Sequence record: MH359124
Reading direction: 5' to 3' (one strand)
Origin: Escherichia phage SF
Length of the DNA stretch: 64,000 nt
In this document: in pieces, positions 1,466-4,301 of the stretch
How the letters are laid out: the number at the start of each line of letters is the position of its first letter
Position numbering within the stretch: the first letter of the stretch is position 1
Translations under genes and position numbers: made by a program
Notes under the pieces: model-generated
The model's input: the letters and a program-made list of their open reading frames with translations, nothing else
The model's database searches: none
What the model was told of the DNA's origin: nothing

Positions 1466-1939
1466 ATGATTATCAATGAAAACTCTTGGCACTTTAAAAT
1501 TTATGCCGCGTTCAATAGTACATGGAATCGCCCGAAAACGTTGTGTGCTTATTTTTGGAAAACGTTAATCCCGGTATTGTCTGTTTCAATTATCGGATTT
1601 GCGATTTTAGCAGCAGTCGTAATCATTGGCCAGGAAATTTTAACTAAATTCTTTGTTTTTAGCAGTTTATGGACATTAGTTCCAGCCTCAATTGGCGTAG
1701 GCGTTTTAATGGTAGCAGTCATGGCTTTTATTGCTACCGGGTTGGTAATTGGTCCGTCTTGGTTGTTAGACAAATATAACGACAGAAAATATTATAAAGA
1801 AATTGAGTTCATTGCGCAAAACCAAGAACGAATTAAAAATGGACTTGAGCCTATTGAACGTAAGAAATCATTAATAGGCGAATACCTTAAAGCTCGTAAA
1901 GAAAAAGTCTGTCCTACTCTTGAATATAAGGCTAAATGA
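1466..1939 (+). CDS. Hypothetical integral membrane protein
   Basis: Several hydrophobic segments in translation. Confidence 0.55.
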   Translation: MIINENSWHFKIYAAFNSTWNRPKTLCAYFWKTLIPVLSVSIIGFAILAAVVIIGQEILTKFFVFSSLWTLVPASIGVGVLMVAVMAFIATGLVIGPSWLLDKYNDRKYYKEIEFIAQNQERIKNGLEPIERKKSLIGEYLKARKEKVCPTLEYKAK

Positions 1940-2925
1940 TGAAAACAATTATGAAAGGCTACTTTGGTAGCCACCTTTATGGAACGTCTACTCCTGAATC
2001 TGACGTCGATTTTAAAGAAATTTATGTCCCTCATGCTCGTGATATCTTGACCGGTAACGTTAAAGAACACATGAGCAAGAACACGAATAACACATCTTCT
2101 AAGAACACAAAAGACGACGTGGACCACGAGTTGTATAGTCTCAAATATTTCTTTAAACTAGCTATGGATGGTGAAACTGTCGCATTAGATATGCTTCACA
2201 CTCCGCAAAGTCTAGTAGTTAAATCTGATTTGCCTGACATGTGGAAGTATATTCAAGACAACAGGTCTCGTTTCTATACCACTAACATGAAATCTTATTT
2301 AGGGTATGTCCGTAAGCAAGCTTCTAAATACGGTGTCAAGGGTTCTCGACTGGCTATTCTTCGTCAAGCCCTTAAACGTTCTAATGAATGGGGTCAATAC
2401 TTTGATAATGGTGCAGTAATTCGTTTATCACATATGAAGAATGTTCTGCCCGTAGGTGAATTTGCTTCGTGGGTTGAAACCGAAAACGAGAAAACAGGTA
2501 AGCAAACGTTCTATAATCTGTTAGACCGTAAATTCCAAGACACATTAACCAATAAAGAGTTCAATGCCATCCTGGTTAAACTGGAAGAGAACTATGGCGA
2601 ACGTGCTCGTAAGGCAGAAGCTAACGAAGGTATTGACTGGAAAGCATTGAGTCATGCATGTCGTGGTGGACTTCAACTATTAGAAATTTATAAAACCGGC
2701 GACCTGGTTTACCCACTTCGGGATGCTCCATTTATTCTAGATGTTAAGCTTGGTAAACATACGTTTAAAACTGTACAAGAATTCCTAGAAGATATCGTTG
2801 ACCAAGTTGAACAAGCATCAGAACAAGCTGCCAAGAACGGTATGCAACAAAAAGTAGATATGAGTTTCTGGGATGATTTCCTTGAGCAAGTCTACTTAGA
2901 AAACCACAATTCGTACTATAAATGA
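1936..2925 (+). CDS. Predicted nucleotidyltransferase-fold protein (GS-x9-DxD motif)
   Basis: N-terminal GSHLYGTSTPESDVD resembles the Pol-beta-type NTase signature; rest unassigned. Confidence 0.45.
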   Translation: MMKTIMKGYFGSHLYGTSTPESDVDFKEIYVPHARDILTGNVKEHMSKNTNNTSSKNTKDDVDHELYSLKYFFKLAMDGETVALDMLHTPQSLVVKSDLPDMWKYIQDNRSRFYTTNMKSYLGYVRKQASKYGVKGSRLAILRQALKRSNEWGQYFDNGAVIRLSHMKNVLPVGEFASWVETENEKTGKQTFYNLLDRKFQDTLTNKEFNAILVKLEENYGERARKAEANEGIDWKALSHACRGGLQLLEIYKTGDLVYPLRDAPFILDVKLGKHTFKTVQEFLEDIVDQVEQASEQAAKNGMQQKVDMSFWDDFLEQVYLENHNSYYK

Positions 2926-2926
2926 T

Positions 2927-2947
2927 AAGGGCCTTCGGGCCCTTTAG
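2927..2947 (+). terminator. UUCG-tetraloop hairpin (GGGCC-TTCG-GGCCC), terminator or RNA stability element
   Basis: Seen in sequence. Confidence 0.5.
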
Positions 2948-3031
2948 GGGGTCAAAATATTTTTAAAAAGTAGTGTACATGCTTTTAGGATATGTTATTA
3001 TAGACATATCAAAACAAGAGGAGAAAACAAA

Positions 3032-3252: not shown

Positions 3253-3284
3253 GTTTACTTTTGCTTTAAACGTGTTATTATAGA
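3253..3284 (+). promoter_or_regulatory. T4-type early promoter (GTTTAC -35, TATTATAG -10)
   Basis: Consensus-like motifs; member of repeated ...tattatagacctatc... cassette family. Confidence 0.55.
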
Positions 3285-3320
3285 CCTATCGAAACGAAAT
3301 GAGTAAATTTGGAGAATAAA

Positions 3321-4301
3321 ATGTTCAACGTTCAAATCAAAAAAGGTATCTATCGTAATAACGAAATCTCTGGTTCTTATGTTGCCACAAAGACCTGGTT
3401 CCCGGCAAAGCTTAATCCTGAATGTTCCCACTTAGGTGATGGTAAAATTTTCGTTATGATTGATGGTTCTGAACGTGGAGTATGGGTCTTCAAATCAGAC
3501 ATCGTAATGGAAGGAGCTGAGACATCACCAGTTGCAGTTGTTGAAAGCACTGAAGATATGAAAACTCGTATCAACAAACGCTTTAAAGTAATGAGCATGA
3601 TGACGAATGGCATTATCGATGGCAAAATTCGTTCACTCATTATTTCAGGTGCAGCTGGTATTGGTAAGACGTATTCTCTGGATAAAGCACTTAATAATGC
3701 TAATGATAACGGTTTCATCAAATACAAAAGCATTAATGGTAAAATCTCTGGTATTGGCCTTTACGAACAACTTTGGCTCAACCGTGATGCAGACAGCGTT
3801 CTCTTAATCGACGACGTTGATGTATTCTCGGATATGGACATCTTGAACCTTCTTAAAGCAGCATTAGATACCGGTGATAAACGCAAAGTTTGTTGGAGCA
3901 CTGCGTCATCTTATCTCGATGATAAGGGTATTGATAAAGAATTTGAGTTTGAAGGTACTATCGTTTTCATTACAAACGTTGATATCGATAAAGAGTTAGA
4001 ACGCGGTTCGAAACTTGCTCCGCACCTTCAAGCTTTAGTATCTCGTTCAGTGTATCTCGACCTTGGAGTACACTCTAATGAAGAGATTATGGTTCGAGTT
4101 GAAGATGTAATATTATCTACTGACATGATGCAGAAACGTGGTCTGACGGATGCAGAAACGTATAAAGCATTGTCCTGGATGAAGGCTAACGTATCTCGTC
4201 TTCGCAATGTATCATTACGTACGGCTCTTTATGTAGCAGATTTTATTTCAACTGATAAAGACGGTTGGGAGGAAATCTCTGAAGTTACACTTCTGAAATA
4301 A
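3321..4301 (+). CDS. Predicted P-loop NTPase (Walker A GAAGIGKT, Walker B LLIDDVD)
   Basis: Motifs in translation; ATG at 3321 with GGAG SD. Confidence 0.5.
   Translation: MFNVQIKKGIYRNNEISGSYVATKTWFPAKLNPECSHLGDGKIFVMIDGSERGVWVFKSDIVMEGAETSPVAVVESTEDMKTRINKRFKVMSMMTNGIIDGKIRSLIISGAAGIGKTYSLDKALNNANDNGFIKYKSINGKISGIGLYEQLWLNRDADSVLLIDDVDVFSDMDILNLLKAALDTGDKRKVCWSTASSYLDDKGIDKEFEFEGTIVFITNVDIDKELERGSKLAPHLQALVSRSVYLDLGVHSNEEIMVRVEDVILSTDMMQKRGLTDAETYKALSWMKANVSRLRNVSLRTALYVADFISTDKDGWEEISEVTLLK

Follow-up and report, generated by a model that had tools for sequence, protein, structure and literature searches.

NrdC.11 of RB69-like T-even phages, a divergent member of the RlaP nucleotidyltransferase family and a candidate RNA 3'-end repair enzyme

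The window analysed here is a stretch of 64,000 nucleotides whose first 8 kb share 95-98% identity with RB69-like T-even phages (Mosigvirus), with 853 phage records matching. The open reading frame at 1936-2925 on the plus strand is real and intact, running uninterrupted from ATG to TGA over 329 codons, and, judged by its sequence, it is the nrdC.11 gene of such a phage. The encoded protein is 100% identical to a protein of Escherichia phage SF and 98% identical to NrdC.11 of RB69 (RB69p103, NP_861793.1), which is annotated as a nucleotidyltransferase. In RB69, nrdC.11 is flanked on one side by mobD.1 and a membrane-protein gene and on the other by RB69ORF102c and nrdC.10, and the NrdC.11 proteins of T4 and RB69 (PHROG 388) are products of the same gene in the same place, between mobD.1 and nrdC.10. 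Close variants of the T4/RB69 type differ essentially only in the choice of start codon: two neighbouring ATGs, at 1936 and 1939, make the start of nrdC.11 ambiguous, and databases carry both the 329-residue and the 328-residue forms. The features of the locus are collected in Table 1.

Table 1. Features of the nrdC.11 locus, in window coordinates
Feature	Position	Strand	Remarks
Predicted membrane-protein gene, 157 aa (phrog_944)	1466..1939	+	Upstream of nrdC.11; genomic context rather than a functional partner
nrdC.11 coding sequence (329 aa + TGA stop)	1936..2925	+	Alternative start ATG 1939
N-terminal Pol-beta-type nucleotidyltransferase domain, residues 7-136	1954..2343	+	Part covered by PF10127 (RlaP)
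Predicted NTP/metal-binding motif G11-S12...D23-V-D25 (GS-x10-DxD)	1966..2010	+	Aligned to S-G-S...D49-x-D51 of canonical RlaPs
D61-V-D63; D63 is the putative third catalytic carboxylate, on strand 62-68	2116..2124	+	96% conserved
C-terminal, mainly helical domain, residues 137-329	2344..2922	+	Specific to the NrdC.11 subtype; beyond the PF10127 profile
Three-stranded beta insertion in the helical domain, residues 177-201	2464..2538	+	Model strands 177-184, 188-195 and 198-201
GC-rich hairpin with UUCG loop (GGGCC-UUCG-GGCCC)	2927..2944	+	Directly after the tandem stops TGA-TAA
Early-promoter-like sites, next two genes	2974-3001, 3254-3281		TGTACA-16-TATTAT and TTTACT-16-TATTAT, both with an upstream TG

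A short run of genes in the same orientation, mobD.1, the membrane-protein gene and nrdC.11, ends with nrdC.11. The TGA of the upstream gene overlaps the ATG of nrdC.11 (ATGA), which makes it probable that both genes are transcribed together and that their translation is coupled. Of 39 relatives of 60-90% identity, 37 have the phrog_944 gene close to nrdC.11; it is absent beside homologues below ~60% identity, and the upstream ORFs of distant phages are unrelated to it. As this gene order is not kept below 60% identity, the membrane protein, which is also without a relative of solved structure, was rejected as a conserved partner. The hairpin that follows nrdC.11 has a predicted energy of -13.4 kcal/mol and is possibly the 3' end or a stabiliser of the transcript, although the evidence for it is weak because its z-score is only -1.15. 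The promoter-like sites associated with the next two genes suggest that each small gene in this region has a promoter of its own. Farther along, nrdC.10 (window 3309-4301) encodes a protein of 326-330 residues with the P-loop GAAGIGKT, assigned to phrog_1250 and with a weak clamp-loader-like match; its longest ORF begins at a TTG at 3309, and the annotated ATG is at 3321. ARAGORN found no tRNA genes in window 1-64000.

Homologues of NrdC.11 were recovered by tblastn in 1519 phage records, mostly T4-like, with at least 80% of the protein covered in 1448. Identity is ~77% to the versions of T4-type phages and declines to 28-31% in Vibrio and Sinorhizobium phages. nrdC.11 is a catalogued, named and widespread gene and does not encode a new kind of enzyme; its product matches the 'nucleotidyltransferase' family PHROG 388 with an E-value of 2e-125. 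Many GenBank and UniRef records (for example those of phages PHB12, moskry and AV110-116) label the protein 'thioredoxin'. This label is an annotation error, since NrdC.11 has no thioredoxin-family match, and it seems to have been inherited from the gene name. Only the last 39 codons of nrdC.11 are left in one T4 record (OL964745.1), and in phage ECD7 (KY683735.1) the match is split in two and amounts to 67% of the protein; these remnants indicate that the gene can be lost or disrupted in viable phages. T4 mutants that have lost the segment from nrdC.11 to mobD.3 are likewise viable, and deletion in the laboratory is possible (PMC9825161).

NrdC.11 is almost certainly a member of the RlaP family, as indicated by its match to PF10127 ('RNA repair pathway DNA polymerase beta family'), which reaches 48.6 bits over residues 7-136 (cut-off 23; E 1.1e-12). 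An exhaustive search of cluster representatives at 50% identity retrieved 3259 with E<=1e-3. Conservation was assessed in an alignment of 139 sequences, namely NrdC.11 and 138 cluster representatives with 34-52% identity to it, and 138 of these 139 diverse subfamily members also match PF10127. The Pol-beta signature, which combines hG[GS], DxD and a third strictly conserved aspartate, is present in full. Residues 11-25 (nt 1966-2010) read GSHLYGTSTPESDVD, and the GS...DxD motif that they contain is far above chance. The initial annotation had described this motif as GS-x9-DxD; the Pol-beta-type assignment holds, and the spacer is corrected to ten residues, which lies inside the Pol-beta consensus of 9-13. 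G11, S12, D23, D25 and D63 are conserved at 96-100% across the alignment. Invariant or nearly invariant positions in the N-terminal part are G11, S12, L14, Y15, G16, S22, D23, D25, N57, D61, D63, D85, Y124, Q128, K131 and Y132, and those in the C-terminal part are R223, D234, K236, H240, R243, P260 and K271.

The predicted structure agrees with this assignment. A single-sequence AlphaFold run gave an all-helix model with a pLDDT of 42; the model used here is based on an alignment with the 138 diverse homologues and reaches a pLDDT of 94.4 and a pTM of 0.87. It contains a nucleotidyltransferase sheet with strands at residues 3-10, 24-31 (starting from D23/D25), 45-49 and 62-68 (bearing D63), followed by a largely helical C-terminal half that ends in two long helices (277-300 and 309-328). 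The C-terminal domain carries conserved basic and aromatic residues, including a YGxRA...DWKAxSHAxR motif at residues 220-243 (nt 2593-2664), and its beta insertion is variable in sequence, with poorly conserved columns among homologues. The Pol-beta-type fold originally proposed is therefore borne out by the family match, the confident model and its structural neighbours. Absence of any nucleotidyltransferase family match, or a predicted fold lacking the catalytic beta-sheet, would have spoken against the initial annotation; neither was found, because PF10127 is matched above its threshold and the model has beta-strands that bear the catalytic aspartates.

Foldseek searches of the PDB returned nucleotidyltransferases as all of the top matches, namely 3c18, kanamycin nucleotidyltransferase and HalB, with probabilities of 0.99-1.0 but E-values of ~2e-3 and low TM-scores; structures in which a nucleotidyltransferase domain is joined to a helical bundle are among the fold matches. 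No solved structure turned up as a sequence relative of NrdC.11 when the PDB was searched by sequence and by profile. Kanamycin nucleotidyltransferase / ANT(4') and the nucleotidyltransferase-like protein 3c18 share 9-11% identity with NrdC.11 at TM-scores of 0.26-0.4, and they differ from it in acting on small molecules and in a genomic context unrelated to that of nrdC.11. HalB of the Hailong system (PDB 9dbh/9dbj) is 16% identical to NrdC.11 and has no family-level sequence match to it. HalB is a homotetramer of 217-residue subunits that processively synthesises poly-dA primed on its own tyrosine (PMC13434031), and it is encoded beside the channel HalA, whereas NrdC.11 has no HalA-like partner.

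Canonical RlaPs, such as those of P. fluorescens and P. aeruginosa and the YcgL type of B. subtilis, share with NrdC.11 the Pol-beta core with its GS, DxD and third aspartate, an architecture, predicted by the model in the case of NrdC.11, in which a helical domain follows the nucleotidyltransferase domain, and an association with RNA ligase or repair operons. The NrdC.11 type differs in being ~60 residues longer, with the beta insertion at 177-201, and in a C-terminal domain that is matched by neither Pfam nor the canonical RlaP profile. When that profile, built from 24 sequences, was compared with the NrdC.11 profile by hhalign, the two aligned with a probability of 92.5% (E 5e-7) over the N-terminal 88 columns only; GS was paired with GS, D23/D25 with D49/D51, and D63 with D88, so that the invariant aspartates of canonical RlaPs (D49, D51 and D88) all have a counterpart. 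Direct profile matches to canonical RlaPs end at about residue 136 (Pfam) or 91 (hhalign), leaving the C-terminal domains unaligned. With matches limited to the N-terminal catalytic core, the substrate-binding C-terminal domain must have diverged, and substrate specificity may therefore differ. A protein from a Deferribacter megaplasmid matches PF10127 over positions 2-246 of 249 (E 9.5e-23) and the NrdC.11 profile over 311 columns (probability 99.8%, E 3.9e-30), and so appears to form a full-length, transitive bridge between the C-terminal domains of NrdC.11 and canonical RlaPs. Taken with the direct alignment that is confined to the N-terminus, this bridge argues that NrdC.11 belongs to a divergent, longer branch of RlaPs in which the substrate-side domain has been remodelled.

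The two subtypes are also distributed differently among phages. Canonical RlaPs occur in 80 phage records, mainly of phiKZ-like jumbo phages and in none of the T-even phages, and no canonical RlaP was found in the window or in RB69 loci. Phage lineages are accordingly split by subtype, with the NrdC.11 type in mostly T4-like phages and the canonical type mostly in phiKZ-like jumbo phages.

The chemistry of the family has been described for the canonical type. As given in PMC7824862, PMC6514570 and PMC12776372, the name RlaP was chosen by Burroughs and Aravind (2016) because the family is linked to genes for RNA ligases; their prediction was that it puts back, ahead of ligation, the nucleotides that cleaved RNAs have lost. 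Two Pseudomonas RlaPs, PfRlaP and PaRlaP, whose genes lie between rtcB and rtcA, were subsequently assayed by Carruthers, Fatma and Huang (bioRxiv, December 2025; PMC12776372). Among E. coli macromolecules these enzymes label RNA only and not proteins; they add 1-2 NMPs to an RNA 3'-OH and then stop, do not extend DNA, are most active with Mn2+ and require the three strictly conserved aspartates (PMC12776372). They favour the 3' end of the 5' half in a cleaved-tRNA mimic and partially rescue the aminoacylation of a tRNA that lacks one anticodon-loop nucleotide; rRNA and full-length tRNAs are labelled in vitro as well, with little discrimination among NTPs (PMC12776372). In the crystal structure of PfRlaP, the N-terminal nucleotidyltransferase domain and a C-terminal helical domain form a cleft, and the last helix packs onto the nucleotidyltransferase domain (PMC12776372). 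The same study places T4 NrdC.11 in cluster 5, 'of unknown function', of the PF10127 similarity network and the assayed RlaPs in cluster 1a (PMC12776372). The initial description of NrdC.11 as a nucleotidyltransferase-fold protein of unknown function is thus right about the fold and outdated about the function, the gene being nrdC.11 and its family one for which NMP addition to RNA 3' ends has been reported (PMC12776372).

Linkage of the NrdC.11 subtype to RNA-repair genes in bacteria is newly shown here. Species-representative genomes were scanned with a 33-sequence subset of the alignment, which gave 80 loci of 33-52% identity. Of these 80 loci, 17 have a gene for an RNA-repair enzyme within 6 kb (RtcB in 9, Pnkp in 9, Hen1 in 8, T4-type PseT in 3 and Rnl1 in 1). 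These counts come from tblastn with reference proteins, because a crude clustering of ORFs lumped the two RlaP types together and included some antisense ORFs. By estimate, a single-copy repair gene would be expected by chance within a 12-kb interval in well under 1% of genomes. Clustering of neighbouring ORFs placed Ro60/TROVE and a ResIII helicase near the NrdC.11 type in 5 loci each. In an operon on the Asticcacaulis plasmid pASDW145_1, Hen1 and Pnkp (kinase/phosphatase/ligase) are followed by an NrdC.11-type protein (37% identity, BLASTP E 5e-59) and a canonical RlaP, and rtcB precedes the gene for the Deferribacter homologue by 2.5 kb. A 4-kb metagenomic contig (L014:62-3803) encodes, in order, an NrdC.11-type protein, an NT5C-like protein, a T4-type Pnkp (AAA_33 + HAD_PNKP), a small ORF and Rnl1 (RNA_lig_T4_1); no other locus found links the NrdC.11 type physically with the two T4-type repair enzymes.

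In bacteria, the NrdC.11 type accompanies canonical RlaP rather than replacing it. Of the 71 bacterial and archaeal loci with enough downstream sequence, 31 have a canonical, short RlaP as the next gene downstream, on the same strand. Examples of such tandems are L047:6001-7802, L068:6001-7790 and L006:5001-6790 (within L015-L089). The two-RlaP tandem often stands behind Pnkp-Hen1, and T-even phages carry the first RlaP only. An apparent 601-aa fusion of both RlaP types in locus L063 was rejected as a wrong-frame ORF in high-GC DNA. The frequency of the pairing argues that the two types are non-redundant, so that the NrdC.11 type may do something other than the activity measured for canonical RlaPs.

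Physical linkage to RNA ligase or Pnkp genes is mostly absent from phage genomes. A ligase or RtcB gene lies within 8 kb in only 2 of 79 viral loci from IMG/VR, which are not independent samples because they are mostly T4-like genomes. In phage phiM7, the homologue sits between two RNA ligase genes, each ~4.5 kb away. RB69 has both pseT and rnlA, ~80 kb from nrdC.11 and outside the region that the window spans (rI to motA).

Based on the homology of its catalytic core and on this genomic context, NrdC.11 probably adds nucleotides to RNA 3' ends, with the RNA substrate and the activity inferred by analogy from two Pseudomonas homologues of a different subfamily. The reading that we favour, with somewhat more confidence than reserve, is that NrdC.11 is an RNA 3'-end nucleotidyltransferase that restores nucleotides to host-cleaved tRNA before PseT and RnlA reseal it. 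According to this model, the enzyme would use G11-S12, D23, D25 and D63 to hold an NTP together with two divalent metal ions, and would extend a broken RNA at its 3'-OH by one or a few nucleotides, template-free. In the infected cell, its substrates would be host tRNAs or other translation RNAs that have been cut and trimmed by host anticodon nucleases. Once the lost nucleotide has been replaced, PseT (end healing) and RnlA (RNA ligase) would reseal the full-length RNA. The case on which the idea of RNA repair as counter-defence was founded is T4 tRNA repair by the pair PseT and RnlA, and a counter-defence role for NrdC.11, as repair of host-cleaved RNA, is plausible.

The tandem arrangement with canonical RlaP is a warning that the specificity of the NrdC.11 subtype may be distinct. 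In the bacterial pairs, the NrdC.11 type may be specialised for one nucleotide, work on another RNA end or form a heteromer with canonical RlaP. We tentatively raise the further possibility, for which we hold a lower expectation than for the favoured reading, that the NrdC.11 type is a second, non-redundant RNA-repair activity and, in T-even phages, the missing third component of the PseT-RnlA pathway, one that reverses nucleotide excision of the RloC type.

The same chemistry could serve other ends. NrdC.11 might be an RNA 3'-end nucleotidyltransferase that tails host or phage RNAs, as a mark for decay or a stabilising modification, or that rebuilds the trimmed 3' CCA ends of tRNAs. The labelling of rRNA and full-length tRNAs by RlaPs with little NTP specificity (PMC12776372), the lack of linkage between nrdC.11 and pseT/rnlA in T4-like genomes and a window without tRNA genes are all compatible with such a role, but bacterial members of the subtype reside in Pnkp/Hen1 and RtcB/Ro60 repair operons and not with decay machinery, and CCA or poly(A) addition is further opposed by the absence of the PolyA_pol head domain (PF01743) from the Pfam matches at E<=1. 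We therefore regard tailing or CCA repair as unlikely.

Less probable still is the nucleotidylation of a protein, as by MntA or DrrA, or of a small molecule, as by kanamycin nucleotidyltransferase, with a host defence or metabolic factor as the possible target. The suggestion of an MNT-type enzyme in the initial annotation fails here: the only NCBIfam match is MntA (NF047752), at 12.9 bits against a cut-off of 60, no HEPN partner gene was found nearby, and NrdC.11 is three times longer than MntA, which belongs to a type VII toxin-antitoxin system. E. coli proteins were not substrates of the assayed RlaPs (PMC12776372), and the genomic context of the subtype is that of RNA repair.

We give very little credence to a nucleotide or oligonucleotide signal or decoy, whether a HalB-like oligodeoxyadenylate that closes a Hailong-type channel or a product of the cyclic-oligonucleotide type, since the resemblance is at the level of the fold only, no CD-NTase or SMODS family in Pfam and no PADLOC model was matched at E<=1 (which leaves the proposed 'nucleotide-signalling' enzyme unsupported), nrdC.11 is surrounded by phage early genes, the membrane protein encoded upstream lacks a relative of solved structure and is missing beside homologues below ~60% identity, and RlaPs halt after 1-2 additions and do not accept DNA (PMC12776372). 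A Hailong-like module of membrane protein and nucleotidyltransferase was rejected for the lack of a PADLOC match and of any structural relative of the membrane protein.

Because the family's function was predicted in 2016 and T4 NrdC.11 was flagged in the 2025 preprint, the gene adds no new kind of system. What is added here is context evidence specific to the subtype, the pairing with canonical RlaP in bacteria and the finding that the 'thioredoxin' label is wrong. The lesion left by RloC-type nucleotide excision has been thought irreparable by phage enzymes since 2008. If repair by NrdC.11 before resealing by PseT and RnlA proves true, phages could undo the action of nucleotide-excising anticodon nucleases such as RloC. 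NrdC.11, the gene for which is carried by more than 1500 sequenced phages, is an obvious candidate for the question of RloC versus phage repair.
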